DNA of 64,000 bases from Patescibacteria group bacterium (GTDB lineage Bacteria; Patescibacteriota; JAUYIX01; JBHPHK01), in the NCBI GenBank assembly GCA_042569365.1, contig JBHPHK010000003.1, forward strand, positions 3,047 to 67,046. Reading direction: 5' to 3'. Positions within the stretch are counted from its first letter, which is position 1, and every line of letters starts with the position of its first letter. The notes beneath the pieces were generated by a model that was not told the origin of the DNA, searched no databases, and saw only the letters and a list, made by a program, of their open reading frames with translations. Shown in pieces: positions 11,351-53,153 of this stretch. A program made the translations under genes and the position numbers.

Positions 11351-11359
11351 TGTTATACT
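11351..11359 (+). promoter_or_regulatory. Extended -10 element (TGtTATACT) ending 9 nt before ATG 11369
   Basis: TG at 11351-11352, TATACT at 11354-11359. No SD between the -10 and the ATG. Confidence 0.45.
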
Positions 11360-11368
11360 TAAAGAGTT

Positions 11369-11671
11369 ATGGCAACTAAATTTGCTCAAAAAGTTTATAG
11401 GGCGCTTGCTAAGGTTCCAAAAGGGAAAGTGACAACTTATGGAAAGTTGGCGCGGATAGCTGGGAGTCCAGGTGCAGCGCGTGCTGTAGGCAGTTTAATG
11501 CGCAATAATCAGCATCCTGAAATTTATCCGTGCTATAAAGTGGTCTTAAGCGATGGGCGCGTCGGGTCTTACAGTGGGCCAGGCGGTCAGGCTAAAAAAA
11601 TAAAATTACTGCGGCGTGATGGAATAGTAATCGAATCCGGCCGGATAAATAAGCTAGACCAGTTTGTATAA
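11369..11671 (+). CDS. MGMT-family protein (methylated-DNA-protein-cysteine methyltransferase DNA-binding/active-site domain only)
   Basis: 100 aa. VPKGKVTTYGKLA...AVG.....N...I.YPCYKVV..DG..G.Y matches the Ogt/Ada C-terminal domain, but the PCHR motif reads PCYK. Confidence 0.7.
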   Translation: MATKFAQKVYRALAKVPKGKVTTYGKLARIAGSPGAARAVGSLMRNNQHPEIYPCYKVVLSDGRVGSYSGPGGQAKKIKLLRRDGIVIESGRINKLDQFV

Positions 11672-11699
11672 AACAACCTTTTTATTTATCATTTGAAAA

Positions 11700-11708
11700 T
11701 GGTATAAT
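11700..11708 (+). promoter_or_regulatory. Extended -10 promoter (TGgTATAAT) for the PIN / zinc-ribbon / prfB unit
   Basis: Perfect TATAAT at 11703-11708 with TGn immediately upstream. Weak -35. Confidence 0.5.
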
Positions 11709-11733
11709 ACTTGATGAACGAGGCGTTTTTCTT

Positions 11734-12171
11734 ATGGCTGCTTTACGCATAATTATCGATACGAATATACTAATTGGCTCTGCTATGGATGAGGATAGTG
11801 CCGAGGCGCGTCTTATTCGTCTAGTTTTAGCGGGCTATTTGAAGCCTCTGATCACCAATAGAATTCGCCGTGAAAATACGAAAATAATCAGGCGTAAATT
11901 CCGCAATGAAGATCCGGAAGCACGCAAAACTTTAGAACGCGTCTTCCTGGAAGCAGAAGAGGTCCAGCAAAAGTCCAATTTGCGAGGTATTACCGAAGAC
12001 CGCGATGATGATAAGTTTATAGAAGCGGCAGTTGACGGAGACGCAGACTATATCATCACCAACGATCATCATCTCTTAGATCTGCATAATATTGAAGGCA
12101 CCGAAATTCTGACAGCACGAGATTTCCTGCAAGCATATTTCGATATTAACCCTAACTTAAAAAACATTTAA
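11734..12171 (+). CDS. PIN-domain protein (putative toxin-antitoxin-type PIN nuclease family)
   Basis: 145 aa. IIDTNILI at the N-terminus, and DDKFIEAAVDGDADYIITNDHHLL typical of the stand-alone PIN family. Confidence 0.7.
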   Translation: MAALRIIIDTNILIGSAMDEDSAEARLIRLVLAGYLKPLITNRIRRENTKIIRRKFRNEDPEARKTLERVFLEAEEVQQKSNLRGITEDRDDDKFIEAAVDGDADYIITNDHHLLDLHNIEGTEILTARDFLQAYFDINPNLKNI

Positions 12172-12179
12172 TCTCCCAT

Positions 12180-12719
12180 ATGGCATTCTTCAACTTTTCA
12201 CCTAAACGTAAAAATATTAAAGCCGACAGTAGTAATGAACGGCGCTTGAAAATCAACGAGCCGGTCACGGCCGCACCCGGATCTAATCTGTATTGCCCTG
12301 GTTGTCATTCAGTTTATTATAAAAAAGCCTGGCATAACAATCCGCAGCTGTTTGAAGAGGTGTCGCAGGATTCAAATAACGCTCAGCAATGTCCCGCCTG
12401 CCAACGCATCAAGGATAACACTCCGCTGGGCATTTTGACTTTAGAAAATATCGAAGATGCAGAGCATCGCCAAATGCTGATCAATACCATTGAAAACATT
12501 GGAGAACGAGCCCAGGCGCGTGACTCTCAGGAACGTATTATGAAGATAGAAGAAACTGGCAATAAGTTGGAGGTTTACACGACCGAAAACCAACTTGCGG
12601 CCGGCATCGGACGCCAGATTAAAAAAGCGTTTGGTGGCAAGCTTCAGATAGACTTTTCACAACAGCGCCATCATGACAGTCTGGCACGTGTTACCTGGAA
12701 ACACACCCCCAAAAATTAA
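12180..12719 (+). CDS. Hypothetical zinc-ribbon protein (CPGC...CPAC); resembles NMD3-related bacterial proteins from memory only
   Basis: 179 aa. Two CxxC pairs 36 residues apart. The stop overlaps the prfB ATG (TAATG). Confidence 0.4.
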   Translation: MAFFNFSPKRKNIKADSSNERRLKINEPVTAAPGSNLYCPGCHSVYYKKAWHNNPQLFEEVSQDSNNAQQCPACQRIKDNTPLGILTLENIEDAEHRQMLINTIENIGERAQARDSQERIMKIEETGNKLEVYTTENQLAAGIGRQIKKAFGGKLQIDFSQQRHHDSLARVTWKHTPKN

Positions 12720-13823
12720 TGGCGACTTTAGCTAAACAAATCGAAGAATTGCTTGCGCGGATTAAGTCCACGCGAGACTGTCTTTGACCTAAGTCAGCAA
12801 AAGCAAAAACTTCTAGAACTGCAAGAGCAGATGACCGCTGCTGGCTTTTGGGATGATCAGAAAAAAGCGCAAACAGTAAGTCGCGAAGCAGCACGCTTAG
12901 AGGAAACATTGCAGCTCTGGGAAGGACTAGAGAAACAGAGTCAGGACTTGCAAGATATATCTAAACTGGCCGAAGGGGAAAAAGATGCTGAACTTACAAA
13001 GGAGGCGGAAGAAAAGCTAAAGGAGCTTAAAAAAATGTTTGAAGAGAAAGAGGTTGAAGCTCTCTTAAATGAGCCATATGATCAAAACAATGCTATCGTT
13101 GCGCTGCACGCTGGGACAGGCGGCACCGACGCGCAGGATTGGGCTGAAATGCTGATGCGCATGTACTTACGTTTTGCAGATAAAGAAAAGCTGAAAATTA
13201 GCGTAGCCGAAGTATCCAGTGGTGAAGAAGCGGGGATTAAGAGCGCAGTTTTACATGTCAAAGGAGATTTGGCGTACGGCAAACTGAAAGCTGAGAATGG
13301 AGTGCACCGGCTCGTGCGTCTCTCGCCATTTAACGCGGACCAATTGCGCCAAACTTCATTTGCGCTTGTAGAAGTTTTACCAGAGATAGGGGACGTCGCC
13401 GAAATCGAAATCCAGCCTGATGAACTGCGGGTTGATACTTATAGAGCAAGCGGTAAGGGAGGACAGCATCTCAATAAAACCGACTCAGCGGTTCGGATTA
13501 CCCATATGCCGACCGGTCTGGTGGCGGCGAGCCAAAGCGAGCGCAGCCAAGCTCAAAACAAAGAACAAGCCCTTACGATTTTGCGTTCCAAGCTACACCA
13601 GAAATATGAACAAGAAAAACAGCAGGAAAAACAAAAAATTCGCGGTGAATATACAGAGGCTGTTTGGGGCAATCAGATCCGATCCTACGTCTTACATCCG
13701 TATAAAATGGTTAAAGACCACCGTACAAAGTATGAGACAGCGAACGCTGAGAATGTTCTGGACGGGGACTTAGGCAAATTTATTGAAGCCTATCTACGCT
13801 GGAGGGCTAAATGCGCAATTTAG
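12719..13823 (+). CDS. prfB: Peptide chain release factor 2, made by a programmed +1 ribosomal frameshift
   Basis: Frame 0 reads ATG 12719...TGT CTT TGA (stop 12785-12787). The +1 frame continues GAC CTA AGT... to 13823. The product carries SPF (RLSPFN) and GGQ (SGKGGQHLN) motifs. The ORF-track start 12753 is an artefact of the shift. Confidence 0.9.
12782..12788 (+). promoter_or_regulatory. prfB +1 frameshift site CTT TGA C
   Basis: Identical to the canonical autoregulatory RF2 slippery site (CUU UGA C). Confidence 0.9.
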
Positions 13824-13892
13824 GCCAGAAAACACTAGTGAAGTTCTAGAAGACCGGTTATAATGTATAAACACGCTAAAATATAAAAATTC

Positions 13893-14573
13893 GTGATTAA
13901 ACTCGAAAAGGTTACAAAAAAATACGGCGACGATGCGCCCGCGCTAGACAGTCTGGATCTAACTATTGAGTCAGGCGAATTTTTGTCTATTGTTGGGCAG
14001 AGCGGAGCAGGGAAGTCTACTCTTGTACGCTTATTGATAGCGGAGGAACGACCAACGGACGGTACGATTGTAATAGACGACTGGCAGGTCGATAGTATCT
14101 TGCCAAATAACATTCCATTTTTTAGGCGGCAGATAGGTGTTGTCTTCCAAGATTTCAAATTATTGCCCAATAAAACTGTATCCGAAAACACCTCATTTGC
14201 TCTCGAGGTTCAAGGTATGCCCGATAATAAAATAACTATAGAAGTCGAACGAGTCCTAGAGATGGTTGGTCTATCAGGAAAAGCGTTGGCTTTCCCAGAG
14301 CAACTGTCTGGCGGAGAACAACAGCGTGTCGCGATTGCGCGCGCACTCGTACACCAGCCAAAGATTCTTATCGCAGATGAGCCAACTGGTAATCTTGACT
14401 TACTAAATTCCTGGGAGATCATGCAGCTGCTTTTGCGGATTAACGAGATCGGCACAACGGTGATTATGGTGACCCACAACGCGGATGTCGTAAACGAGCT
14501 GCGCAAGCGAGTGGTCACATTGGATCAGGGTAAAATAGTCCGCAACCAAAAAGTGGGCCGCTACAAACTTTAA
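13893..14573 (+). CDS. ftsE: Cell division ATP-binding protein FtsE
   Basis: 226 aa, GTG start. Walker A GQSGAGKST, ABC signature LSGGEQQRVAIARAL, Walker B ILIADEPTGNLD. Located immediately upstream of ftsX. Confidence 0.9.
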   Translation: MIKLEKVTKKYGDDAPALDSLDLTIESGEFLSIVGQSGAGKSTLVRLLIAEERPTDGTIVIDDWQVDSILPNNIPFFRRQIGVVFQDFKLLPNKTVSENTSFALEVQGMPDNKITIEVERVLEMVGLSGKALAFPEQLSGGEQQRVAIARALVHQPKILIADEPTGNLDLLNSWEIMQLLLRINEIGTTVIMVTHNADVVNELRKRVVTLDQGKIVRNQKVGRYKL

Positions 14574-14578
14574 ATATT

Positions 14579-15508: not shown

Positions 15509-15509
15509 C

Positions 15510-15538: not shown

Positions 15539-15563
15539 ATTGCAAGCGCAGAATTATTTACAT

Positions 15564-21346: not shown

Positions 21347-21418
21347 GTAAATTAAAACTTGACGAAATGTAAATTTTGTGTTATTCTACAACGTTTCCTA
21401 TAATAGATATAGAACAAT

Positions 21419-22768: not shown

Positions 22769-22792
22769 TCACTTTTGTTTAGTCTCTAGATT

Positions 22793-22801
22793 TGCTAAAC
22801 T
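22793..22801 (+). promoter_or_regulatory. Extended -10 element (TGcTAAACT) ending 9 nt before ATG 22811
   Basis: TG at 22793-22794, TAAACT at 22796-22801. No SD. Confidence 0.45.
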
Positions 22802-22810: not shown

Positions 22811-23551
22811 ATGCGCCAAATTTTAAAGAAATACATTCAATTTTGGGAAGTTTCCCTGATTATTATATTGCTAGTGACAGCGGGTACTTTTTTTGTGAGC
22901 ATTGTTTTGCCGTCTGAGTATCAAAGCGAGTCAACCGTCTTGATTGTCCAAAAGCAGTCCAGCCTAGATCTTTTTAACGCAGCCAAGGCGTCGGAATACG
23001 TTTCAACAATTTTAGGAGAAGTTGTATATACCGACCAATTTATAACTGAGGTCATCAAGAACGACACAACTTTAAGTAATAACTTGCCACCCGACATCGA
23101 GCAGCGCAGTCGTGCCTGGGATAATTATTTGAGCTTAGCGCAGGTTGAAGGCGCCGGTATCTTACATTTTTCTTTCTCCTCATCTGATCCTGCTTTAGCG
23201 CAGCGTTATATGCAAGGCGTTGTTAATACTTTGCTTACGAACGCTGCACAATATCATGGTCGTGGTGCAGAAGTCGAGTTGCATGTCATCGACAATCCGA
23301 CTTTGGATGTGCAGCCTGTGCGTCCGCGTGTCTTTATGAATACGCTTGTCGGCTTTATTTCCTCATTGATTCTGGTCGGCATCCTATTTTATCTGGAAGA
23401 TATTTATAATATCCAACTTTTCCGCTGGAGCAAAAGGCGCGAAGAAGAATACTATGCGCCAGAAGAACAAACAGCTCTTGAAGCTCCCGATGTTGTCGAA
23501 GAACAGCAGGCGATCGAAGATTGGCTTAAAAGTGGCGAAAAAAAGCAGTAG
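22811..23551 (+). CDS. Wzz-like polysaccharide chain-length determinant / co-polymerase protein
   Basis: 246 aa. TM helix near the N-terminus followed by PSEYQSESTVLIVQ, and a second TM helix near the C-terminus (PCP topology). Confidence 0.5.
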   Translation: MRQILKKYIQFWEVSLIIILLVTAGTFFVSIVLPSEYQSESTVLIVQKQSSLDLFNAAKASEYVSTILGEVVYTDQFITEVIKNDTTLSNNLPPDIEQRSRAWDNYLSLAQVEGAGILHFSFSSSDPALAQRYMQGVVNTLLTNAAQYHGRGAEVELHVIDNPTLDVQPVRPRVFMNTLVGFISSLILVGILFYLEDIYNIQLFRWSKRREEEYYAPEEQTALEAPDVVEEQQAIEDWLKSGEKKQ

Positions 23552-26713: not shown

Positions 26714-26750
26714 AATTGTCCCAATCCATACAATCCGCTAAACTATATCT

Positions 26751-28626: not shown

Positions 28627-28659
28627 CTATTTCATGTTATTATATATAAAACAAACACG

Positions 28660-31706: not shown

Positions 31707-31708
31707 TC

Positions 31709-33037: not shown

Positions 33038-33046
33038 TGCTATAAT
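33038..33046 (+). promoter_or_regulatory. Extended -10 promoter (TGcTATAAT) upstream of 33086
   Basis: Perfect TATAAT at 33041-33046 with TGn upstream. No good -35. Confidence 0.5.
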
Positions 33047-36233: not shown

Positions 36234-37193
36234 TTATAAAATACTGCCGATAATCTCTGGATGACCACATAAGAATTCGCCGGCGGACATACTGGATTTG
36301 CCCTCGAGCTTGAGCTGGGAAATTGCGATGCGTCCATCGGCTGTGCCTACTGCGAGAGTGTTGTTTTCCTCGGCAGCTACTTCACCGGACTGTAGAGTTC
36401 CACCGGGATGTACATGCATACCTTCGATCACGAGCCGTTTATTGTTATAAAATGTATGCATGCCCGGCCAGGGTTGATAGGCGCGAAATTTACGCTCGAT
36501 GGTCTCGGCATTTTCTTGCCAATCAACAATACTTTCACGCTTTTTGATCTGTTTGGCTACAGTTGCGCCATCTTCTGGCTGAGGCACGGCTTTTAATTCA
36601 CCTTCTAGAATATTAGGAAGCTTAGTATTTAAAAGATTTGAGCCAAGCTGGGAAAGAGTCTTGAAAAGCTCGGGACTTGTTTCGGTTCCATTCAATTTGA
36701 CTATGGATTGCGCAAAAATTGGCCCAGTATCTAAACTTGGTTCTATTTGCATTAGGGTAACGCCCGTCTCTGTGTCTCCTGCAGTTATCGCTGCTTGGAT
36801 AGGCGCTGCGCCACGCCAGCGAGGCAGAAGCGAGGCATGAACATTTAAAAAGCCTAGGCGCGGGACATCTAGGATCTCTGCTGGCAAGATGTTTCCGTAG
36901 GCGACTACAATTGCGATGTCTAGATCTAAGGATTCAAGATACTTCTTTTCTTCTTTTAGATTGCCGGAAAACTTTTCCGGCTGGCGAATGTTGTTCGGAG
37001 AAATGCCAAGTCGAAGAGCTGCTTCCTTGACGGGAGAGGGGAGTAGCTCGCTAGAACGACCACGGGATTTATCAGGATTAGTATAAACGGCCGCGATGTC
37101 ATAACCGGCTTTAACTAGTCCTTCCAAAGCGGGTACAGCAAAATCTGGCGTGCCCAAGAAAGCGAGTTTGTATTTTTTAAAATCGAATGCCAT
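36234..37193 (-). CDS. fmt: Methionyl-tRNA formyltransferase
   Basis: 319 aa. FLGTPDFAVP N-terminus and NVHASLLPRWRGAAPIQ motif. Located downstream of def. Confidence 0.9.
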   Translation of the reverse strand: MAFDFKKYKLAFLGTPDFAVPALEGLVKAGYDIAAVYTNPDKSRGRSSELLPSPVKEAALRLGISPNNIRQPEKFSGNLKEEKKYLESLDLDIAIVVAYGNILPAEILDVPRLGFLNVHASLLPRWRGAAPIQAAITAGDTETGVTLMQIEPSLDTGPIFAQSIVKLNGTETSPELFKTLSQLGSNLLNTKLPNILEGELKAVPQPEDGATVAKQIKKRESIVDWQENAETIERKFRAYQPWPGMHTFYNNKRLVIEGMHVHPGGTLQSGEVAAEENNTLAVGTADGRIAISQLKLEGKSSMSAGEFLCGHPEIIGSIL

Positions 37194-37637
37194 TTATTTA
37201 TCAAAATAATCGATGCACAGGATGCCGTTGAGATGGTCGATCTCGTGCTGTAGGATGCGCGCTTCCAGTCCTTCCGCCTCTATTTCAATTGGCTGACCAG
37301 TGCGGTCAAGAGCGTGTACTTTGACGTGTGCAGCGCGGTCTACCTTACCTTGCAGTCCAGGGGCTGAAAGGCAGCCTTCATCATCTAAAATTTTATCTTC
37401 AGACTTTTCGATAATTTCTGGGTTGATCAGGGCAATATCCTCTTCATGAAGATGAGCGATCGCAATACTTTCGGTGCGCCCTATTTGGGTCGCCGCCAGT
37501 CCGATGCCTTGGTTTTTGTGCATCGTTTCGATCATATCGTCGATCAGCTGCTGGATCTCCGGTAGCGTCGGGTCGGCCACTTTTTCTGTTTTAATGCGAA
37601 CACGAGGGTCGCCTTCAAATACGATTGGTCTTTGCAT
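37194..37637 (-). CDS. def: Peptide deformylase
   Basis: 147 aa. The three PDF motifs GIGLAATQIG, EGCLS and HEIDHLNG. Confidence 0.9.
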   Translation of the reverse strand: MQRPIVFEGDPRVRIKTEKVADPTLPEIQQLIDDMIETMHKNQGIGLAATQIGRTESIAIAHLHEEDIALINPEIIEKSEDKILDDEGCLSAPGLQGKVDRAAHVKVHALDRTGQPIEIEAEGLEARILQHEIDHLNGILCIDYFDK

Positions 37638-37662: not shown

Positions 37663-39636
37663 TTATAGCGTAGATACGGGGTCTACATCAATTTTCCAGG
37701 TATTGGGCACTGAATGGAAAAGTGCACGTAAATCTTTTTCAGTTCCGTTCAGTAAGATCTGCCAGATATATTTACCGCGCAGGCGCGGAATAAAGCCGGA
37801 CGTTGGTCCTAAAATCTGGGTCGTTTTACTGTTGTTTTTCTCCAGTTGCTCTATCAGTTTTTGGGAAAGTTCCAGAGCTTTCTGCTCACCGTCGGAATCT
37901 GACTTGGTCATTAAGGTTAGCAAGGCCAGCTTGGTGAAGGGGGGATATTTCATTTCCCGCCGTTCTTTGATCTCTTTATCGTAGAAAAGCTCGAAGTCGT
38001 GCTGGGCAGCGGCCTGGATGGCAAAATTTTCGGGTTGATAAGTCTGTACGATGACTTGGCCCGGACTATCACCGCGACCGGCTCGCCCCGCCACTTGAGT
38101 GAGAAGCTGGAAGGCGCGTTCCTGGCTGCGGTAGTCTGGAAAGGTAAGTGCAGTATCTGCGAGGACTACGCCAACTAAATCAACTTGCGGGATGTCCCAG
38201 CCCTTTGTAATCATCTGGGTGCCTATCAGAATATCGATCTCTCCTTTTTTAAGTGCTGAAAAAAGCTTGTGGTGTGCGTCTTTGTTTTGCATGGTATCGC
38301 TGTCCATGCGCGCGATGTGCACTCCTGGGAAAGCATTGACCAGTGTTTTCTCTACAGTCTGTGTCCCGAGGCCTAATTTTTTGATCTCAGTGTTTTGGCA
38401 TTCAGGGCAACGACTTGGCAAGTGTTCATTTTGGCCGCAGTGATGGCAGCGTAACGATTCGCCTCCGTAGCTCTGGTGATAGGTGAGTGGAAGTAGACAT
38501 TTATCACAACTAAACACAAAACCGCATTTGGTGCAGATAATACTTGAGGCGGCGCCACGTCTATTTAGGAACAGCAGGATTTGTTTGTTGGCATCGAGCG
38601 TATCAGCGATAGCTGACTGCAGGTGCTCGGAAAATATCCCGCGCGTCCCTGTACGTTCCACTTGCCGAAGGTCTATCACAGTCACTGGCGGTAGGGGACG
38701 CTGTTCGATTCGTTCACTCAGAGTCAACAACTCAAAATCTTCGGTATCTTTTGCGCGATAATAGCTAGTAATATTTGGAGTGGCGCTACCCATGATCAAG
38801 GTAGCCGGCCAAAAATCTGCCAGCTTCTCTGCCACAAGTCGTGCATCATAAAGCGGAGTAAGGTCATACTGCTTATAGCTATCATCATGCTCTTCGTCGA
38901 CAACGATCAGGCCCAAATCGTGAAAAGGCAAGAGCGAAGCAGAACGGGGACCAACGATTACACATGGCTCACCAGCGCCGATCTTTTGCCAGATATTAAA
39001 ACGCTCACTAGCCGACATTCCGCTATGCCAAAAATATACTTGCTCAGGGAAGCGGGCGCTGATTCGGTCGTGTTCCTGGGCGGTCAGGGCAATCTCAGGC
39101 AATAAAAACAAAACCTGCTTGTCAGCATTCAAGGCATTTTCAATAGCGTTAAAGTATATCTCCGTTTTACCACTGCCAGTAATGCCATGCAATAAGAACT
39201 TGCCAGAATTTTTCTTCAAATTGGTTTCAATCTTATCCCACGCCTTCTTCTGGTCTGTGGTCAAGAGATGAGGCTTTTCCGGCGGGTCCAGCTTGATGTC
39301 GCTAGTGTCTTGGCGCGGTCGTTTTAGTTCACGCGGAAGCATCGCGGCTAAGACCTGGCCGTAAGAGCCTTGATAATAGTCTGCGATCCACTTAAGAAGG
39401 TCACGTGTAGGTTTTTCAAAAGTCGGCGCCTCGACAGCTTCAATAATTTCTTTCAACTTTGACTTCGGTGTCTTAGTGTCCTCCTCTTCATCCCAGACAA
39501 GGCCGCGTAAATTTCGTTTACCAAAAGGAATCCGCACCAAAGTGCCCGGCTTGATCTGTTTAGTCGACAAATAGGAAAAAACCTGGGTATTGCCCAGCTG
39601 CGTTTTGGTTTCTGGAATAACTCCGAGGCGGTACAT
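37663..39636 (-). CDS. priA: Primosomal protein N' (replication restart helicase PriA)
   Basis: 657 aa. Walker A GITGSGKTE, DEEHD box, Cys-rich zinc insertion (CTKCG..CDKC..CHHCG..CPEC), helicase C-terminal motifs. Confidence 0.9.
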   Translation of the reverse strand: MYRLGVIPETKTQLGNTQVFSYLSTKQIKPGTLVRIPFGKRNLRGLVWDEEEDTKTPKSKLKEIIEAVEAPTFEKPTRDLLKWIADYYQGSYGQVLAAMLPRELKRPRQDTSDIKLDPPEKPHLLTTDQKKAWDKIETNLKKNSGKFLLHGITGSGKTEIYFNAIENALNADKQVLFLLPEIALTAQEHDRISARFPEQVYFWHSGMSASERFNIWQKIGAGEPCVIVGPRSASLLPFHDLGLIVVDEEHDDSYKQYDLTPLYDARLVAEKLADFWPATLIMGSATPNITSYYRAKDTEDFELLTLSERIEQRPLPPVTVIDLRQVERTGTRGIFSEHLQSAIADTLDANKQILLFLNRRGAASSIICTKCGFVFSCDKCLLPLTYHQSYGGESLRCHHCGQNEHLPSRCPECQNTEIKKLGLGTQTVEKTLVNAFPGVHIARMDSDTMQNKDAHHKLFSALKKGEIDILIGTQMITKGWDIPQVDLVGVVLADTALTFPDYRSQERAFQLLTQVAGRAGRGDSPGQVIVQTYQPENFAIQAAAQHDFELFYDKEIKERREMKYPPFTKLALLTLMTKSDSDGEQKALELSQKLIEQLEKNNSKTTQILGPTSGFIPRLRGKYIWQILLNGTEKDLRALFHSVPNTWKIDVDPVSTL

Positions 39637-39645: not shown

Positions 39646-40461
39646 CTATTTATGAGGCGACAAATCTACTGTCAGATAACCCGTACCAAAAGGCGACTCG
39701 TAGCTCAAGAGATGAGGCTTAATATCAGGATCAGAAACTTTAGCAGCCGCCCACGCAACACAAAGCGCGCGTAGTCCAGTCTCACCGATCTTCTTAGCCC
39801 AAGTGGAATCTAGATTTCTAATCGCGGCTGGGTTGTTGTCACGCAAAGCCTCAATAATAGTAATATCAAAATGTTCAGACTGTTCCAGGTACTCAGCTGA
39901 GGCAGCCGGCATCTTGTTGGCCAGGTCAGTCGATGCGATCAGGGCGATCTTCTCGGGACGCGCATGCAGGGTGTGGCCGAGCATCTCGCCCGCTAGCCAG
40001 TGTTCCGAAAAATTATTTTCGGAATGCTCCATCATTATGATCTGAGGCAAATCATCAGTCTTCTGGCAACAGCCAATGATCATCAGCGTAATAAACGTGA
40101 AGGGACTGATGGAAGTTTCGTGCTGCGTAGTCGTTGGGATACCCAGACTCTTAGCGTTGCGGCGGATTTCCTCTACTAGATCCTGATGATTATGGAAAAC
40201 TAAAGCGGTCTCTTCATCTCCAAACGCGGCGAGATTACCTGAAAGCTGGTCAGAGTTCGCAAAAACCAGCGTATCGAGATTATGGTTCTCGGGACGCGGT
40301 GGCTGGACAACAGCAACAATCTCAGGCTTAATTGCCTGAATTTTAGCTCTTAGGCTATCAAGTGATTGCCTGGTAATATCAGTTTTCAGTTTGTGGTCTT
40401 CTGAAGCGCTTGGCAAAAGTTCAGGAGCATGGGGCGCAACAGCAATAAAATCTAAACTCAT
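39646..40461 (-). CDS. Hypothetical protein; possibly class III extradiol dioxygenase (LigB)/MEMO-like fold
   Basis: 271 aa. N-terminal IAVAPHAPELL pattern and length resemble the LigB superfamily. Weak assignment. Confidence 0.35.
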   Translation of the reverse strand: MSLDFIAVAPHAPELLPSASEDHKLKTDITRQSLDSLRAKIQAIKPEIVAVVQPPRPENHNLDTLVFANSDQLSGNLAAFGDEETALVFHNHQDLVEEIRRNAKSLGIPTTTQHETSISPFTFITLMIIGCCQKTDDLPQIIMMEHSENNFSEHWLAGEMLGHTLHARPEKIALIASTDLANKMPAASAEYLEQSEHFDITIIEALRDNNPAAIRNLDSTWAKKIGETGLRALCVAWAAAKVSDPDIKPHLLSYESPFGTGYLTVDLSPHK

Positions 40462-40470
40462 AGTGTTTAT

Positions 40471-40479
40471 ACTATAGCA
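40471..40479 (-). promoter_or_regulatory. Extended -10 element (minus strand TGcTATAGT) ending 9 nt before ATG 40461
   Basis: The minus strand reads cgTGcTATAGTataaacactATG. No SD. Confidence 0.5.
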
Positions 40480-40517
40480 CGATAAATCCGGTTTTTAACA
40501 GTGCTTTTCCCTATATG

Positions 40518-40526
40518 TGTTAAGAT
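40518..40526 (+). promoter_or_regulatory. Extended -10 promoter (TGtTAAGAT) for thpR
   Basis: TG at 40518-40519, TAAGAT at 40521-40526, 18 nt before ATG 40545. Confidence 0.45.
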
Positions 40527-40544
40527 TTAAGAAACGCAAAAACT

Positions 40545-42565: not shown

Positions 42566-42664
42566 GATGTCCTCCTTTTTGTAAAGTTGCACGCATTTAG
42601 CTGCCCCATGCACTAAATGACTCAAAATAATAGCATAAAATGCACTTCTCGTCAACTTAAGATG

Positions 42665-42673
42665 TGTTACAAT
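42665..42673 (+). promoter_or_regulatory. Extended -10 element (TGtTACAAT) ending 9 nt before gltX ATG 42683
   Basis: TG at 42665-42666, TACAAT at 42668-42673. No SD. Confidence 0.5.
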
Positions 42674-42682
42674 ACTGACAGT

Positions 42683-44050
42683 ATGAAAAAGCCCTCAAAA
42701 CAAGTTAGAACGCGTATTGCACCGTCTCCGACGGGATTGCTGCATTTTGGTACTTTGCGTACCGCGCTGTTTAATTATCTCTTTGCCAAGAACAATGGGG
42801 GAGAGTTTATTGTGCGCATTGAGGATACAGATAAGGAACGTTCTAACGCCGCTTTCGAAAAAAACATTTTGGACGGGATTGCCTGGGCGGGTCTTGAGTG
42901 GGATGAGGGTCCGGATAATCCTGGCAAGTTCGGACCGTATCGCCAGTCAGAGCGGGGGAGTGTCTATGAAAAATATTTCAAGATTTTGCAGGATTCCGGG
43001 CAGGCTTATGAAAAAGAGGGCGCGCTTCATCTGAAATTGCCGGAAGACATCAAGGAACTGACTATAAAAGACTTGATCAGGGGAGAGGTAACTTTCGATA
43101 TTACTCAGTTAAACGACATTGTCATCCGAAAGTCAGACGGTACGCCGACGTTTATGTTTGCGAATGCCTTAGATGACGCACTGATGGAGATCTCGCATGT
43201 GATCCGTGGAGAGGATCATCTTTCCAATACGCCCAAGCAGGTGATCATTTACCGGGCGTTAGGATTTGAGCCACCCGAGTTTGCGCACCTGCCACTGATC
43301 TTAAATCCAGATCGCAGCAAGATGAGTAAGCGCGCCGGTGACGTCGATGTAGACGCCTATATCCAGAAAGGCTATCTCCCGGAAGCTTTAATCAACTTTA
43401 TGGTTTTCCTGGGCTGGAATCCTAAGACGACTGAGGAGATCTTTTCACTTGCCGAGCTAGAAAAACGTTTTGATATCGCACAAGTCAACAAAGCGGGCGC
43501 CGTTTTTGACATCAAAAGACTAAACTACTTGAACAACAAATATGTCAATGAACTTTCCGAGGATGATTTCGTTACTTATTGTAAAAATCCTTTGCTAAAA
43601 GCTGGTTTGGTCGAAGAGAACGATTTCACAAACAAAAAAGACCGCGAGTATCTGGGGAAAATCTTAGATGTCATCAAAGACCGCACGGAAAATAACGAAG
43701 AGATCGCAGAGCAGGTCCAATTTTTCTTCAAGCCGGCAGAAGATTACGACGCCTCCAAAGTCATCTGGAAAAAGAGTGACAAGGATGAGACGATCAAAGC
43801 TTTGGCGGCAGCCGCGGAAGAGTTAGAGAAATTATCTGCAGCACAATACACCCACGAAAATATCGAGAAAGCTTGGCGGGCAAGATTAGAAAAAGAGGGG
43901 ATCGAAGCAGGTTCGTTTTTATGGCCGGTGCGCTATGCGCTTTCCCATGAAGATCGTTCTCCCGGCGCTTTCGAAATGGCGGCAGTTTTAGGAAAAAAAG
44001 AGTCCATGCAGAGAATCAAGGAAACGATTTCTAAGTTGGAGAAGAGTTAA
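42683..44050 (+). CDS. gltX: Glutamate--tRNA ligase
   Basis: MKKPSKQVRTRIAPSPTGLLHFGTLRTAL (HIGH-type motif), KMSKR, class I GluRS length. The track start 42617 extends the ORF upstream across the extended -10 element (42665-42673). Confidence 0.9.
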   Translation: MKKPSKQVRTRIAPSPTGLLHFGTLRTALFNYLFAKNNGGEFIVRIEDTDKERSNAAFEKNILDGIAWAGLEWDEGPDNPGKFGPYRQSERGSVYEKYFKILQDSGQAYEKEGALHLKLPEDIKELTIKDLIRGEVTFDITQLNDIVIRKSDGTPTFMFANALDDALMEISHVIRGEDHLSNTPKQVIIYRALGFEPPEFAHLPLILNPDRSKMSKRAGDVDVDAYIQKGYLPEALINFMVFLGWNPKTTEEIFSLAELEKRFDIAQVNKAGAVFDIKRLNYLNNKYVNELSEDDFVTYCKNPLLKAGLVEENDFTNKKDREYLGKILDVIKDRTENNEEIAEQVQFFFKPAEDYDASKVIWKKSDKDETIKALAAAAEELEKLSAAQYTHENIEKAWRARLEKEGIEAGSFLWPVRYALSHEDRSPGAFEMAAVLGKKESMQRIKETISKLEKS

Positions 44051-47073: not shown

Positions 47074-49101
47074 ATGAAGAAAACTCTGGTTTTTCTCGCA
47101 ACCCTGGCAATTTTGGTGCTGGTGGGACCCACAATGGTGTGGAGCCAACAGCTTCAGAAACATGACCTGAACAGTGAATTTACCGCGAATCGTGCGGAGT
47201 ATGTCCTGGCACAAAGGGGAGTCACGTCTGCTTTTTTTAACCTCTTCGGAAGTCTTGATGAGCGGCAGACGATCCTGGCCGGGAAAATCTGTTTGGAATT
47301 CGAAAATGCCCAAATCGACAGTTTCCTGCAAGCACAGAGAGACGGTTTGATTCCGGCACATGCAGTAATTCCAATGCCGAAAATGCTTTCGGTGCAAATC
47401 ATCGATACGGCCGTGGCTATCAAAGCTGCTGGTCGTGACACACCCAATCCTGATTTGCAGGCGGCCGGCGGTGCTGATAAGCAACTGGCAGGTAGCTTTA
47501 CTCGTCTGGTACTTGCCAGCGGTGAAACTGCCGTAACGGTTGAATACCCGAACGACTGTCCAGGTCTAACATTCCAAGAATGTATGGACGCAAACGAGCC
47601 TGTAGCGGAAGCAGCGGATCAGGATCTTGTAATCATTATTACAGAGCCTAATCCCTTTACCGCTACTACCAAGAGCAGCTACAAGCTCGGCGCCTATGGC
47701 GGCACGATTATCCGTGCCATCAACGGCGGAACTGGAATCAAGTGGACTTACCTTAAATTCCAGTTTGACCATCAGGCGATTTTTGCCAAGTACGGCAAGG
47801 ATTACTCTGGTGCGGTCATCGATCCCGAAGTTAACGGGGCCACGTTCTGCATCGCCGCAGATCTGGGTGCGAACATTATAGTTGAAAACGTCATGCAGGC
47901 CAATGTTGGTGCGACCTCGGCATCCCAGTTTCGGTTCAACAACGTGATTTTCACGAATGTGAACTATGAAACGCAGGATGTGCGAGCCATCGATATTCCG
48001 CAGTTAGCTGCGGGGCAGGTGATTGACTTTACTAACGTCACTGTTAGCGGAGTCAACGCCGGTGACGGTATCGCAATCTACGATGCTACTAACGACGGGA
48101 CGTTTGTTGGTGATAATGTAAGAGTATCCGGAGCCTTTAACCAAGGTTTCTATGCGACTTGCAGTACTTACCTTACGAAGTCTCGTTTCGGCGGAAATTC
48201 TCCAGGCGTGTTTGTTGCAGGAGACTGTAGCGACGCATCGCTGGTGAAATTCTATACTAGCAATAGCATCTTCGATGGCAACGGCCACGGCATACTCTTG
48301 TTTAGTGTCTCAAATGATCCGACAGTTGGCATTTCAATGCCGACGGGTGATAGAGCCTCAATCGAGAATTGTCGCATCCGTTCCAATGGAACGGATGGAA
48401 TCCACACAGACTACTGTGCGAATGTCAATCTCTACGGCAATAACATTGCCCAGAACTTGAATGGTATCTCGTACAATAGCTCGTCTGGGATGATTCATCG
48501 CAACATTTTTACGCAGAACACGTATAATGTCGCGGTAGGATCGTCTCTGGCCGACACCTGCGTTGATTACGGCGTTCCAAATCTCGGTGACGTCACTTTC
48601 TGCGGTTGGAATAGCATCACCAGTAGCCCGGGATCAACTACGCCTACAGTCGATGGCGGATTGATCTGGCTCGATCCAACGGGCGGCGCTACGCTTACTG
48701 CTCACGCAAACTGGTGGGGCGCGTCTGCACGTGACGATCTCGCGACGTATTTCCATCTTGGAGCAGGCTCAAGTGTTGAACTTGATCCGGCGACAACCGG
48801 GAACGTCGAAGTCGGCAAAGGACTTGTTAGTCCTTTAATGTCTGGCGCGGTTGGCGAGCTGGAACTTACCAAAAACGTCGACGGTCTCAATATCGACATT
48901 GTCGATCTGAACTGGACCGATCCACCCACTACAGCCTACGTACGGTGGGGGAATGATCCGTCAACTGTTCGTGCCTCAGGCACGCTGGATCCTATGACCA
49001 ATGGTTTCCTGCAGCAGTTGATTGACGGAGTAGAGACTCTCTACTACGTACGCGTGGATACAGAGCCTTACATCAATCCTGATGAGGCAACTTGTCCGTA
49101 A
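47074..49101 (+). CDS. Large secreted right-handed parallel beta-helix protein (paralog 1)
   Basis: ATG 47074 is preceded by GGAGGA; the track start 46981 lacks support. Signal peptide. Beta-helix repeat stretch NCRIRSNGTDGIHTDYCANVNLYGNNIAQNLNGISYN..., and the LTAHANWWG motif common in NosD-like beta-helix proteins. Confidence 0.65.
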   Translation: MKKTLVFLATLAILVLVGPTMVWSQQLQKHDLNSEFTANRAEYVLAQRGVTSAFFNLFGSLDERQTILAGKICLEFENAQIDSFLQAQRDGLIPAHAVIPMPKMLSVQIIDTAVAIKAAGRDTPNPDLQAAGGADKQLAGSFTRLVLASGETAVTVEYPNDCPGLTFQECMDANEPVAEAADQDLVIIITEPNPFTATTKSSYKLGAYGGTIIRAINGGTGIKWTYLKFQFDHQAIFAKYGKDYSGAVIDPEVNGATFCIAADLGANIIVENVMQANVGATSASQFRFNNVIFTNVNYETQDVRAIDIPQLAAGQVIDFTNVTVSGVNAGDGIAIYDATNDGTFVGDNVRVSGAFNQGFYATCSTYLTKSRFGGNSPGVFVAGDCSDASLVKFYTSNSIFDGNGHGILLFSVSNDPTVGISMPTGDRASIENCRIRSNGTDGIHTDYCANVNLYGNNIAQNLNGISYNSSSGMIHRNIFTQNTYNVAVGSSLADTCVDYGVPNLGDVTFCGWNSITSSPGSTTPTVDGGLIWLDPTGGATLTAHANWWGASARDDLATYFHLGAGSSVELDPATTGNVEVGKGLVSPLMSGAVGELELTKNVDGLNIDIVDLNWTDPPTTAYVRWGNDPSTVRASGTLDPMTNGFLQQLIDGVETLYYVRVDTEPYINPDEATCP

Positions 49102-49158
49102 CGCTTCTTCATCTCCAAAAATGAGCATATTACGTGCTCCTACGTAGGGAATCCTATA

Positions 49159-49203
49159 GGGGGTAAGAACTTCATATGAAGCTCTCTTGCCCCCTATTTT
49201 TTT
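49159..49203 (+). terminator. Intrinsic terminator
   Basis: GGGGGTAAGAACTTCATATGAAGCTCTCTTGCCCCC followed by TATTTTTTT. Confidence 0.75.
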
Positions 49204-49259
49204 ATCCAAATATTTTCTCTTCCACTTAAATTTCGCGCGAATTATTAAGATAAATAACC

Positions 49260-49289
49260 TTGACAAAAGATCAAAAATAGTGTAAAAAT
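49260..49289 (+). promoter_or_regulatory. Promoter for beta-helix gene 2
   Basis: cTTGACAAAA-N-TGtAAAAAT. The leader ends caccaAAAAGGAGGacgattATG. Confidence 0.5.
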
Positions 49290-49392
49290 AAACATCAATC
49301 TCCTGCGCCTGTTTTCAGGTATAATGGGGTTGAGAAAACAGTTGAAATGATCTTTTAGAACTAAATACCAAACACCAAAAAGGAGGACGATT

Positions 49393-51957
49393 ATGAAAAC
49401 GTCTATTCTTCTCAAAGCAGTGCTCATGGCACTGATACTGGTGGTTATGGCACCTATTTTCTGGTGTCTAGACACTGCCAGTGATGACTGTACTCTCGAC
49501 GACTCGATTCGGGCACAAGAAATTCTGTGTGACAGGGGAGTAAAAGACGCTTTCTATGACCTCTTTGGAGGTCTCAATGAGCGCCAAACGCTTCATGCTG
49601 CGCAGATCTGCCTGGACTTCGAACAGGAACAGCGAATACGTTCTGAAGCCGCTTTCAAAGCTGGCTTAATTACGCAAATTCCTACGCCTGTTGCACTCAA
49701 CATGCAAATCATCGACACAGCCGCTGCAATTAAAGCTACTGGTTCTGGAAATCCGAATGTGGAACTTCAGAATACCAATAGCAGCAAAGACAAATGGCTG
49801 GCCGGCATTTTTATCCGATTATTACTTGATGGTGGCGAAACCGCTATCGTCAGGCACTACCCGGGTGACTATGTGAGTGGCGGAACCAAAGTGGCCTATC
49901 TACCATTCCAACAAGCAATCGATGCACTCGAACTCGAAGGTGAAGCAGAGGACAAGGATGTGGTTTTGATTGTAACGGAAGCGAACCCATTTACAGCCAC
50001 TGCTAAAATAGCCTGTGAACCGGGCGCCCACGAGGGCGTGGTGATCAGAACCGTCAACGGCGCAACTGGAATCAAATGGTTTGATCTTCGGTTCGAGTAT
50101 GACCAGGCAGCAAACATTGCCAAGTACGGTAAAACGTTTATGCCCATCATCGACGCCTCGGTCAATGCCGCGACATTCTGTATCACAACAGACTTGAACT
50201 GCAATGTCCGAGTCTCCGGCGTGGATCTTGTCAACGAAGGTGATACGTCTGCAGTGCAATTTCGCTTCTGCAACGTGTACCTGGATGACATTACCAGTTC
50301 GGCGCAGCTCACAACCTTTATTGATATTCCGGACCTCCTAGCGGGGCAGGTTATTGACTTTAAGGATGTGAGGATCAATGGAGTAGCGTCTGGAAGAGGA
50401 ATTCACATTTATGATTCCGATCTAGATGGAACATTCATTGGTGAAGGACTGAACATTAGCGGCACGTTTTCACTGCCGATCCACACGTGGTGCAATACTA
50501 GTATTACCAACTCTAACGTGAGTGGTAATAATGGTGGAGGCATCCGCGTAGATGGATACAGCATGAGCTGTGCTAATACCAATGTCGCTGTGAATCTCGA
50601 TAATGTAGTTATCGATGGCAACAGTTCAGTTGCGCTGATGCTTAGTTTTGTGCAAGACGATGCTGGACTTGGAGAAACCATGCCTAGTGGCGCTAGCGCA
50701 ACTGTTGCGAACTGCAGAATCAGGAGTAACGGTGGCGGTGCCGGTGCAATGATCGACGGCTGTGGCCCCATAAACTTCTGGCGAAACAACATTGGTAAAA
50801 ACAATGTTGGTATCGTCATGGAAGAAACGGCGGGTGACTTCGCACAGAACATTATCACGCAAAATGATAAGGGAATAGTCACGAATACGATTTCGGATGC
50901 CGTGTGGTGTTCACAAGGCCTTGACACGCCGGTTCCCAATTTGGGAGACGACACCTGGTGCGGAGTGAATATCATTGCCGATACGACCAGCCGGCTCATC
51001 GACAACAATTTGAACACCATGCTGACGGCCCACGGCAACTGGTATGGTGATAGTGCTCTGCCTAACCCGAGTGTTTACATGGAAGGCAACGTGGATCTGG
51101 GTACTTCGCTTCCTAATCCGCCTAAAGCAGGCGCGGTAGGGGAGATCGAACTGTCTTTCAATCCTGACGGCGTTAATATCGACATTGTCGATATTAATTG
51201 GGCAGATCCACCGCCTGGCAGTGCCGAAGTCTACTATGGCACCGACCCCTCTCAGGTCAGTGCTTACACTACAGCATTTGGTGTAATGGTAGACGGGCTA
51301 TATCAGTATCCGGTGGACGATGGTAACGTGACGACTTTCTTCAAACGGAAGGAAATCGAGCCTTACTTCGACCCGGACACCGACCCGTGTCCAGGTGACA
51401 CCCAGAGTATTGGAACGCTTCAATACATCGATGGCGTCAAGTCATATGATCCGGATGGTGAAGTCTGGTATATCCAGTGGAAATTCAGCAGTGCTGATGA
51501 TCAAGCTCTCTACGCTGATGGTCCTGCCCGTGCCGGGTACGCCTATTGGTTTGGGGCATTGGAAGAAAAGGGGCAGGCTGTGTTTCCGCTGACGGACATA
51601 AGTCCAGGTGTAGAAATTGAGTTCTGGGATCAGTTGGACCCAAGCAATCCAGTCTATCTGACAGGAAACGTTGTGGTGAAAACTGGCAATCTCAATCTTC
51701 CCTTTAATGGTGTTTACCATTGCGGGGAGTGGGATGGACTGACTCGAACAGAGTGTGAAAGCTTTGTTCCCATCAGTCTGACCGGAAGCACTGAAGTACC
51801 GCTTAACAATCAGCATTCCTTCTTCTTAAATGAAGGAAATCTGCCCTCCTTAGATGGTGACTATGTTATCATCGAGTTGGCAGATGGCATGCTTTTCAGT
51901 GAGCCAATGATTAACTGGACAAGTTCAGGGGTCATGCACATCAACGTGACATTCTGA
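49393..51957 (+). CDS. Large secreted right-handed parallel beta-helix protein (paralog 2, with an extra C-terminal domain of about 180 aa)
   Basis: 854 aa. Colinear with the 47074 protein (shared blocks NPFTAT, GIKW, AKYGK, LAAGQVIDF, NCRIRSNG, VPNLGD, LTAHGNWYG, AGAVGEIEL, NIDIVDINWADPP, EPYFDPD). Confidence 0.65.
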   Translation: MKTSILLKAVLMALILVVMAPIFWCLDTASDDCTLDDSIRAQEILCDRGVKDAFYDLFGGLNERQTLHAAQICLDFEQEQRIRSEAAFKAGLITQIPTPVALNMQIIDTAAAIKATGSGNPNVELQNTNSSKDKWLAGIFIRLLLDGGETAIVRHYPGDYVSGGTKVAYLPFQQAIDALELEGEAEDKDVVLIVTEANPFTATAKIACEPGAHEGVVIRTVNGATGIKWFDLRFEYDQAANIAKYGKTFMPIIDASVNAATFCITTDLNCNVRVSGVDLVNEGDTSAVQFRFCNVYLDDITSSAQLTTFIDIPDLLAGQVIDFKDVRINGVASGRGIHIYDSDLDGTFIGEGLNISGTFSLPIHTWCNTSITNSNVSGNNGGGIRVDGYSMSCANTNVAVNLDNVVIDGNSSVALMLSFVQDDAGLGETMPSGASATVANCRIRSNGGGAGAMIDGCGPINFWRNNIGKNNVGIVMEETAGDFAQNIITQNDKGIVTNTISDAVWCSQGLDTPVPNLGDDTWCGVNIIADTTSRLIDNNLNTMLTAHGNWYGDSALPNPSVYMEGNVDLGTSLPNPPKAGAVGEIELSFNPDGVNIDIVDINWADPPPGSAEVYYGTDPSQVSAYTTAFGVMVDGLYQYPVDDGNVTTFFKRKEIEPYFDPDTDPCPGDTQSIGTLQYIDGVKSYDPDGEVWYIQWKFSSADDQALYADGPARAGYAYWFGALEEKGQAVFPLTDISPGVEIEFWDQLDPSNPVYLTGNVVVKTGNLNLPFNGVYHCGEWDGLTRTECESFVPISLTGSTEVPLNNQHSFFLNEGNLPSLDGDYVIIELADGMLFSEPMINWTSSGVMHINVTF

Positions 51958-52022
51958 CGTCTTCTCCTGAATTGGGGAGTAATCTTACTTCTCAATTCTA
52001 CTTACTAACCCAGGGGGTTGGA

Positions 52023-52064
52023 ACTTCTTTCGAAGTTTCAACCCCCTTTTTCTTTTACATAATT
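52023..52064 (+). terminator. Strong intrinsic terminator
   Basis: GGGGGTTGGAACTTC-ttt-cGAAGTTTCAACCCCC followed by TTTTTCTTTT. Confidence 0.85.
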
Positions 52065-52233
52065 TATGCTTAGATGAAGCAAGAGGGGAGTCACAGTATT
52101 TTGCCTCCTTCTGATGCTCCCTTCTAAGCGTTGCATTCTCTGATTTCGTAAGGCATGGCAGTGCCTTACTCCTCCTTCACCTCCTAGAATCAGTTAATGC
52201 TTTCGCTTGTTCACGCCTATCCCGAGGTGGAGT

Positions 52234-52272
52234 TTCATCCGAGACTCCACCTCCTTTTATATGGGTTAATAA
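52234..52272 (+). terminator. Terminator-like hairpin inside the gene-free region (or an SD-sequestering hairpin if read on the minus strand)
   Basis: GAGGTGGAGT-ttcatccgag-ACTCCACCTC followed by CTTTTATAT on the plus strand. Confidence 0.4.
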
Positions 52273-52449
52273 ACAATTTACGCGTCAAAGAAACACTCTA
52301 AGATACACCAAACTCAGATAAATCATATATAGAGCTTCGCATAAGGTACATTGTGCGACACAACATATATAGTTTCTGGGGCGTATTCTCCTACGTCCCC
52401 CGCCGAATAGGTATGTCGAGTTTGTTTATTTGTAATTACTCCATAACAA

Positions 52450-53136
52450 CTAGAGATTTATCTTAGGAGGTAGAGAATCTTGGGTATCCTGATATCTCTT
52501 CGGGTCATCAATAGTGTGAAAAGGACCATCGTATACATAGGCGTAAACAAGTTTTTTGGCAGCAAGTGAGGGGAATACATCAACTTCCAACGAACTTTTT
52601 GTGTTTTCGGGTATATGGGCGAATATGTCAGGTTCACACATGTATGGTCCCCCAACAGACACCCAGCCAGGTTCTGACCCAACTTTCTCTGTAAATTTAG
52701 TAACGCACATCGAATCCTCTGAAAACTCAACAAATCCATAGTCAGTAGAATCTTTCAGGTACTTCACTGGAAAAGTGACGACCCCTCCCCTCTCCAAGTG
52801 AAATTTTTTAAGAGCGTCCATGTCGATCCGCTTAATCTCATCAGCATTGGACACGCAAAATGTCTCGCTAATCTCATCACGCATAAGATCCAATGCTCCA
52901 CCCGTTCCGCGTTGCTCGGACTCCCCTATTATCGTGAAGTCATACTGAGTTTGTAGGGGCTCATATTGTTCAACAAAAACATTTTTCGTAATAACTATAA
53001 CGTCGTGCCCGCTGAGCTGTTCCAATAAATACGAAATCACCGGCCTACCGTTGATCGGCATCATCGGCTTGGAAATGGTTTTAGTGAGCGACTTGAGGCG
53101 TTCGCCCGATCCGCCTGCGAGAAGAATGACTTTCAT
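52450..53136 (-). CDS. Sugar-phosphate nucleotidyltransferase (NTP_transferase family)
   Basis: 228 aa. MKVILLAGGSGERLKSLTKTISKPMMPINGRPVI, the G-x-G-x-R-L signature of sugar-1-P nucleotidylyltransferases. Confidence 0.75.
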   Translation of the reverse strand: MKVILLAGGSGERLKSLTKTISKPMMPINGRPVISYLLEQLSGHDVIVITKNVFVEQYEPLQTQYDFTIIGESEQRGTGGALDLMRDEISETFCVSNADEIKRIDMDALKKFHLERGGVVTFPVKYLKDSTDYGFVEFSEDSMCVTKFTEKVGSEPGWVSVGGPYMCEPDIFAHIPENTKSSLEVDVFPSLAAKKLVYAYVYDGPFHTIDDPKRYQDTQDSLPPKINL

Positions 53137-53144
53137 TACTCACA

Positions 53145-53153
53145 ATTATAGCA
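53145..53153 (-). promoter_or_regulatory. Extended -10 element (minus strand TGcTATAAT) ending 8 nt before ATG 53136
   Basis: The minus strand reads ggtcTGcTATAATtgtgagtaATG. No SD. Confidence 0.5.

Follow-up and report, generated by a model that had tools for sequence, protein, structure and literature searches.

The 64,000-nucleotide stretch of DNA analysed here, which is called the window in the following, comes from a Patescibacteria group bacterium (GenBank assembly GCA_042569365.1, contig JBHPHK010000003.1, positions 3,047 to 67,046). Five genes in the window are preceded by a TGnTAnnnT box that is located 8-9 nucleotides (nt) upstream of the ATG start codon, with a weak -35 element and without a Shine-Dalgarno (SD) sequence (sites 1-5; Table 1). 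These boxes are probably extended -10 promoters giving rise to leaderless or near-leaderless mRNAs, whereby we infer both the start sites of transcription and the mode of translation from the DNA sequence. According to the proposed mechanism, the boxes would act as -35-independent extended -10 promoters for the housekeeping sigma factor and the transcription start sites would lie 0-3 nt in front of the AUG. The resulting mRNAs would be leaderless or nearly so, would lack an SD and would be translated by the 5'-end- and AUG-dependent route that is known for leaderless mRNAs.

A previous sequence-only reading of the window had suggested leaderless mRNAs for six transcription units, and this suggestion is partly supported. 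The six -10 motifs are located exactly at the coordinates, on the strands and at the distances that had been assigned to them (6/6). Moreover, the claim that an SD is missing was confirmed because none of the six starts is preceded by a 4-mer of AAGGAGG in the region from -20 to -4. The TGn extension, which had been described as nearly always present, is found at sites 1-5 in the form TG(T/C)TA...T, but site 6 in front of ftsE lacks it. Likewise, the -35 elements are as weak as reported at sites 1, 2, 3 and 5 (2-3 of six positions matched) and at site 6 (0-2 of six), while site 4 matches at four of six positions. The statement that each unit contains a single good -10 element does not hold for ftsE, which has a consensus TATAAT further upstream. 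Thus, site 6 is a weak candidate for a leaderless start. Furthermore, the designation of the six genes as core genes fits gltX and ftsE only. The idea that leaderless starts account for the missing SD of most core genes has to be abandoned, as this architecture is present in 5 of 47 SD-less genes, or in about nine if looser candidates are admitted.

Boxes and start codons in the window

The gene set used for the analysis comprises 58 genes, which were derived from open reading frames (ORFs) and codon scores and whose starts were curated. Sites 1-5 all precede the first genes of transcription units, that is, genes that are either at least 42 nt away from the upstream gene or divergently oriented. 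The start codons of the six genes are reliable because they coincide with the NCBI annotation of the 83,044-bp contig (proteins MFC1632682-MFC1632730, locus tags ACFL1U_; six identical N-termini) and because they fit the Pfam coordinates. In a profile search, the Pfam domains start at residues 2-18 of the six products. For instance, the NTP_transferase domain begins at residue 2, and position 4 of the LigB profile is aligned at residue 8. GltX translated from ATG 42683 is identical to MFC1632716.1 (100% identity, 455 amino acids, same start).

The motif TGNTANNNT occurs in the window at the expected overall density (124 copies found, 122.5 expected). In the 100 nt preceding each of the 58 starts, 25 copies were detected in total, at gaps of 8, 9, 9, 9, 9, 16, 18, 18, 21, 25, 26, 31 and 39 nt and, for the remaining 12, at 52-90 nt. 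The distribution is bimodal, with five copies at gaps of 8-9 nt and none at 0-7 or 10-15 nt. For the 8-9 nt bin, a binomial P of 1.8e-4 was obtained, which becomes 0.008 when corrected over all 46 two-nt bins. The earlier claim that the spacing is beyond chance is borne out by shuffling: when the proximal 40 nt were shuffled, 0.16 copies were expected as compared to the five observed, and 0 of 20,000 shuffles reached five. Nor did any two-nt bin attain five copies in another 5,000 shuffles that were run separately. A count that is independent of gene models led to the same result, since 7 of the 1,854 ATG triplets on both strands carry the box at a gap of 8 or 9 nt and five of these seven are annotated gene starts (hypergeometric P = 3.5e-7). 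The ORFs that begin at the other two ATGs have 8 and 20 codons. None of the 216 decoy ORFs inside window genes has the box at these gaps.

The TGn extension is specific to sigma-70 contacts, and the boxes are therefore read as promoter-like. Across bacteria, transcription starts are centred 7 nt after the -10 element (PMC12641261). A pyrimidine-purine step, usually C-A, is present at positions 6-7 after the hexamer at three of the four window sites with a 9-nt gap (cACT-ATG, cAGT-ATG and cACT-ATG) and at 8 of 11 sites in the pooled data. With a start about 7 nt after the -10 element, sites 2-4 would therefore yield mRNAs of the form 5'-A-N-U-AUG with a 3-nt leader. At site 2, the CA dinucleotide at positions 6-7 points to A22808 as the predicted start, and the starts predicted for sites 3 and 4 are A42680 and A40464. 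For site 1, the predicted start is around 11365-11366 with a leader of 2-4 nt, and for site 5 a leader of 1-3 nt is predicted. The leaders of 0-3 nt that had been proposed earlier agree with a start expected 0-3 nt before the ATG, but a 9-nt gap strictly gives 2-3 nt and not zero. The predicted 5' ends fold less stably than shuffled sequences in all six cases (z +0.6 to +1.6). This low structure is weak support, as it is typical of initiation regions generally.

The genomic context fits separate transcription units because terminator-like hairpins precede sites 1 and 5 and because divergent regions harbour sites 3 and 4. Upstream of site 1, a plus-strand gene ends in a terminator-like hairpin (11196-11209), and a tRNA-Thr gene on the minus strand (11220-11294) is located between this hairpin and the box. 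A minus-strand promoter, TTGAAA-16-TACAAT (11320-11347), lies about 25 nt upstream of the tRNA-Thr gene and is arranged back-to-back with site 1. The intergenic gap upstream of site 2 comprises 42 nt, in which no terminator was predicted. Site 3 is located in a divergent intergenic region of 117 nt (42566-42682). Opposite the gltX box, this region contains a minus-strand TTGACG-17-TATTAT promoter (42655-42627) for a transglycosylase gene with an SLT domain, which is SD-led. Site 4 is situated in a compact divergent region of 83 nt (40462-40544), in which two extended -10 boxes stand back-to-back, and the promoter scan reads it as TTAAAA-16-TATAGT with TG. The gene behind site 4 heads a run consisting of a 657-amino-acid ORF (37663-39636) and the ORFs 37194-37637 and 36234-37193. 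By eye and without any tool, we take these to encode a PriA-like protein, Def and Fmt, respectively. The terminator upstream of site 5 ends 17 nt before the TGn box and 20 nt before its -10 hexamer. Since this terminator lies just upstream, the start site at site 5 is confined to less than about 34 nt from the ATG.

A two-hexamer sigma-70 scan recovered site 4 alone and is uninformative for -35-independent promoters (in two 20-kb stretches, 51 and 28 hits as compared to 29.8 and 27.6 expected, respectively). The sequence CTCTAGAT at 11311-11318 and 22784-22791 was considered as a shared motif of sites 1 and 2. It was judged to be a chance occurrence, as it lies 33 nt upstream of the -10 element in one case and 1 nt in the other; it occurs four times in the window when both strands are counted. 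Moreover, the ORF at 58221-60158 was first taken for ftsH, which was ruled out because NCBI names the product a DUF4012 protein.

Table 1. Boxes, terminator and start codons in the window (positions are those of the whole stretch)
Feature	Position	Strand	Relation to start codon and gene
Site 1, TGTTATACT	11351-11359	+	9 nt before ATG 11369; MGMT-family gene 11369-11671
Site 2, TGCTAAACT	22793-22801	+	9 nt before ATG 22811; Wzz-like membrane protein gene 22811-23551
Site 3, TGTTACAAT	42665-42673	+	9 nt before ATG 42683; gltX 42683-44050
Site 4, TGCTATAGT	40471-40479	-	9 nt before ATG 40461; LigB-fold hypothetical gene 39646-40461
Site 5, TGCTATAAT	53145-53153	-	8 nt before ATG 53136; NDP-sugar synthase gene 52450-53136
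Site 6 (weak candidate), TAAAAT	13877-13882	+	10 nt before GTG 13893, ftsE; without TGn, -35 matches 0-2/6
Alternative ftsE promoter, consensus TATAAT	13859-13864	+	28 nt before GTG; leader of about 21 nt without SD
Extra candidate, TATAAT	60166-60171	-	7 nt before GTG 60158; DUF4012 gene 58221-60158; without TGn
Extra candidate, TAAACT	26739-26744	+	6 nt before ATG 26751; hypothetical membrane protein; without TGn
Strong intrinsic-terminator-like hairpin and T-tract	53208-53171	-	belongs to the gene upstream of site 5
Divergent box opposite site 4, TGTTAAGAT	40518-40526		18 nt before ATG 40545, SD-less
Extended -10 box, 16-39 nt before start	189-197		SD-less start 216
Extended -10 box, 16-39 nt before start	28635-28643		SD-less start 28660
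Extended -10 box, 16-39 nt before start	11700-11708		SD-less start 11734
Extended -10 box, 16-39 nt before start	53982-53990		SD-less start 54017
Extended -10 box, 16-39 nt before start	21379-21387		SD-less start 21419
Extended -10 box, 16-39 nt before start	33038-33046		SD-less start 33086
SD-led starts			16443, 23821, 24741, 26126, 27737, 41683 (-), 42565 (-), 47074, 49393, 55778, 56300

Recurrence of the arrangement in other Patescibacteria

Judging from its protein sequences, the organism is a bacterium of the candidate phyla radiation (CPR) that has no close sequenced relative. The next best GltX among 5.8 billion proteins is 48% identical, genome and metagenome scans yielded at most 49%, and all tested window proteins form singleton clusters. 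The top matches of the GltX scans belong to Paceibacterota, Parcubacteria, Saccharibacteria and similar groups. For replication, 468 de-duplicated genes were taken from 64 Patescibacteria-like loci (among L001-L116) that had been fetched with GltX, and the starts of the longest ORFs were used. These loci stem from distant relatives, with a GltX identity of at most 48%.

The sequence-only reading had proposed to look for an enrichment of the box 8-10 nt before starts. In the replication set such an enrichment was indeed found, with 17 boxes as compared to 3.5 expected (P = 2e-7). The counts of TGNTANNNT at gaps of 0 to 12 nt are 2, 3, 0, 2, 2, 2, 8, 7, 8, 7, 2, 1 and 2, with a background of 1.16 per gap. 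The peak covers gaps of 6-9 nt, where 30 boxes were counted and 4.65 were expected (Poisson P = 5e-15). The start codon is ATG in 29 of these 30 matches, and an SD-like 4-mer is present in one of them. Moreover, the sequence 16-18 nt upstream of the boxes resembles -35 elements more closely than control positions do (mean of 3.27 as compared to 2.56 matches, P = 7e-4), and TTGnnn elements are enriched at this distance. By contrast, no peak was seen when 1,185 decoy ORFs of these loci were counted (1, 0, 0 and 1 boxes at gaps 6-9). Therefore, neither the stop codons inside the motif nor the rule for calling starts is the source of the peak.

Several of the genes that follow the matches presumably have housekeeping functions, as we read their N-termini by eye as those of AspRS, MurD, MurG, Era, L27, Def, a Lon-like protease and GltX. 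In front of aspS, the arrangement of TTGATT, TGnTAAnAT, a 9-nt gap and ATG is kept in three related loci while the flanking sequences diverge (L004:1934-2018, L025:2797-2881 and L016:4140-4224). In front of genes that we take to be murD, again from N-termini read by eye, the box is 7 nt away in three loci and 9 nt away in one.

Shine-Dalgarno use and competing explanations

SD use in the window is all-or-nothing. A near-perfect AAGGAGG is located 5-9 nt before the ATG of 11 genes, and 47 of the 58 genes lack an SD. Among the 36 first-in-unit genes, nine are SD-led, five have the strong leaderless signature and about four have a weaker one. The weaker candidates are ftsE, the genes starting at 60158 (DUF4012) and 26751 and, possibly, the one that starts at 53977/53980. 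Furthermore, 22 operon-internal genes have no SD. At least seven SD-less starts are preceded by extended -10 boxes at a distance of 16-39 nt (Table 1), which implies, on the basis of the predicted promoters, unusually short SD-less leaders of about 9-32 nt, for which leaderless initiation does not account. No more than a fifth of the genes without an SD (about 5-9 of 47) are covered by leaderless starts, and thus leadered and internal cistrons must also be served by an SD-independent route. The organism has at least three start architectures: 11 genes have SD-led starts, about 5-9 have leaderless-type starts, and the majority have starts that lack an SD and are either leadered or operon-internal.

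The SD-led genes differ from the remaining ones. A hydrophobic N-terminus, that is, a signal peptide, a lipoprotein signal or a transmembrane segment, was found in 10 of the 11 SD-led products as compared to 16 of the 47 others (Fisher P = 0.0013). Moreover, the GC content at third codon positions is higher in the SD-led genes (0.52 as compared to 0.455, P = 0.003), and most of them have no Pfam family. The link between SDs and secreted proteins was not replicated in the other CPR loci. In the 468 genes from the 64 loci, an SD-like 4-mer is present at -20 to -4 in 12% of the cases as compared to 8% in shuffled upstream regions. SDs of five matching bases occur in 7% of these genes, which is about equal to the 6.4% with leaderless-type extended -10 boxes.

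Two of the SD-led genes, 47074-49101 and 49393-51957, are adjacent and encode large secreted proteins, both with a strong SD. The first product has Pfam matches to right-handed beta-helix/NosD-like families and the second has no Pfam match. By eye, they share long similar N-terminal stretches and appear to be tandem paralogues. The prfB gene (12719-13823), encoding release factor 2, contains a classical +1 programmed frameshift site (12782-12788). Its ATG at 12719 opens MATLAKQIEELLARIKSTRDCL, after which CTT TGA C follows; the same ATG overlaps with the stop codon of the preceding gene. Upstream of the shift site, where the sequence reads ACGCGAGACTGT, no SD-like stimulator was detected, which is in line with an organism in which SD pairing is rarely used. 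The presence of the CTT TGA C frameshift site also indicates that TGA is a stop codon in this organism.

An explanation that competes with leaderless starts assumes that the boxes are real but serve minor or regulatory promoters, and that most of the translated mRNA originates from longer transcripts and is read via the SD-independent route of the other SD-less genes, about 40 in number. Such a route is needed in any case, as most SD-less genes are operon-internal or short-leadered. Moreover, site 2 follows only 42 nt after the upstream gene, without a predicted terminator, and ftsE has the upstream TATAAT. However, the strong terminator directly in front of site 5 and the short divergent regions around sites 3 and 4, which contain no other good -10 element on the same strand, are difficult to reconcile with longer transcripts. 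In addition, the tight spacing of 8-9 nt, which recurs as a peak at 6-9 nt in the replication set, points to selection acting on how far the box is from the ATG, for which a generic internal promoter would have no need. Thus, we regard longer transcripts as the major source of the translated mRNA as unlikely.

It is even less probable, and in fact very improbable, that the motif is no promoter at all and represents either the binding site of a regulator or an A/T-rich non-SD ribosome-binding motif of the kind found in Bacteroidota. For the 'group B' genomes defined by GeneMarkS-2, A/T-rich non-SD motifs have been described at about 9 nt from the starts (PMC6028130). Furthermore, TAnnnT alone peaks only weakly in the window; its plain profile, which was examined as a signal and rejected, has five copies at gap 9 but also five each at gaps 26 and 53 and is unconvincing without TGn. 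However, the enriched pattern includes the promoter-specific TG one base before the hexamer, and the replication set shows the TTGnnn -35-like elements at 16-18 nt. The same motif is also located 16-39 nt before other units, as would be expected for promoters and unlike a ribosome-binding site. Finally, the box at a gap of 8-9 nt is present before 5 of the 36 first genes but before none of the 22 internal genes, a difference that is only suggestive (Fisher P = 0.08). The weakest explanation, chance matches in upstream regions rich in A and T or an artefact of start choice, is hardly credible: the overall motif density equals expectation, there are but five sites and the bin was picked after inspection of the data, yet the ATG-anchored P value and both shuffling experiments, the starts called independently by NCBI in agreement with Pfam, and the peak in an independent sequence set with flat decoy ORFs all speak against it.

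Several observations weigh against the interpretation of the boxes as leaderless promoters. The window contains only five strong sites, and at site 2 read-through from upstream promoters may occur. The 9-nt gap exceeds the 6-8 nt of Mycobacterium tuberculosis, and at such gaps a leader of 2-3 nt is more probable than no leader at all. The upstream regions of gltX in other Patescibacteria show no consistent arrangement, and orthologous promoters are not comparable because the nearest GltX is 48% identical. Among the 30 replication matches, 10 follow the upstream gene at a distance of less than 40 nt, and at least one of these, in locus L007, presumably lies inside a conserved def coding sequence, as read by eye.

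Significance and comparison with known systems

The leaderless mechanism itself is not new, and it is the apparent phylum-wide pattern in Patescibacteria that is useful and testable. As a more tentative proposal, which we consider possible rather than probable, the CPR phylum may largely dispense with SD-dependent initiation and may express a considerable part of its housekeeping operons from extended -10 promoters directly adjoining the AUG, with leaderless mRNAs or leaders of 1-3 nt as the result. In the lineage studied here, the perfect AAGGAGG SD would then be reserved for compositionally distinct, lineage-specific secreted and membrane proteins. If this is true, the CPR would represent a low- to mid-GC group using genetic code 11 with frequent predicted leaderless starts, and ultra-small cells would have a two-tier regime of translation initiation. 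The prediction of starts in CPR bins hinges on which model of initiation is assumed. SD-based gene callers would misplace starts in a very large uncultured phylum if most genes are SD-less and a considerable minority of the operons is leaderless. Leaderless initiation is often discussed as ancestral or stress-related, and if it were used routinely, alongside very short leaders that lack an SD, this would suit the extreme genome streamlining and the reduced ribosomes of the CPR. Furthermore, the arrangement of TGnTAnnnT, 6-9 nt and ATG would supply promoters for the genetic tools that are under development for Saccharibacteria.

In a literature search, no paper was found on either leaderless starts or the use of SDs in Patescibacteria. 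According to the paper citing it, a set of start sites inferred from RNA sequencing exists for Nanosynbacter lyticus (PMID 35975994, cited in PMC12641261). The closest parallel is provided by the 'group C' genomes of GeneMarkS-2, in which a Pribnow box at about 10 nt from the starts of first genes marks leaderless genes and which comprise 90% of the Actinobacteria and 97% of the Deinococcus-Thermus group (PMC6028130). In M. tuberculosis, the box is located 6-8 nt from the starts and 25-50% of the operons are affected (PMC6028130). As in M. tuberculosis and D. deserti, a -10 box lies about 6-10 nt before SD-less first genes in the window and SD-led genes coexist with them. The share of affected units is about 14-25% of 36 here, whereas it amounts to a quarter to half of the operons in group C. 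Further differences are the gaps of 8-9 nt in the window, as compared to 6-8 nt in M. tuberculosis, and the TGn extension of the boxes. Nearly all group C genomes with genetic code 11 are high in GC, and the low-GC examples are Mycoplasmas with genetic code 4 (MetaGeneMark-2 preprint, 10.1101/2022.07.25.500264). In contrast, the GC content is 45.7% in the window and 29-47% in the other Patescibacteria loci.

The Mycoplasma genomes of group C are reduced, low in GC and predicted to have 30-60% leaderless transcripts (10.1101/2022.07.25.500264). The organism studied here resembles them in its small, streamlined genome of low to mid GC content, in its -10-dominated promoters close to the starts and in its limited use of SDs. 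However, the lineages are unrelated, and Mycoplasma uses genetic code 4, whereas TGA is a stop codon here. Extended -10 (TGn) promoters are recognised by sigma-70-type RNA polymerase; they are typified by E. coli galP1 and are common in Gram-positive bacteria. The window sites share with them the TG one base before TAnnnT, the poor or absent -35 element and a predicted start about 7 nt downstream at a pyrimidine-purine step. The TGn extended -10 is also listed among the promoter elements of bacteria (PMC12641261). In contrast to the known extended -10 promoters, the sites described here are predicted from the sequence, and the genes for RNA polymerase and the sigma factor lie outside the window. 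The cI mRNA of phage lambda transcribed from PRM is the textbook leaderless mRNA. As at PRM, the AUG comes right after the -10 element, so that the mRNA would start at or next to the start codon. Unlike lambda cI, which is a single regulatory case in a host that uses SDs, the arrangement in the window is recurrent across housekeeping and accessory genes.

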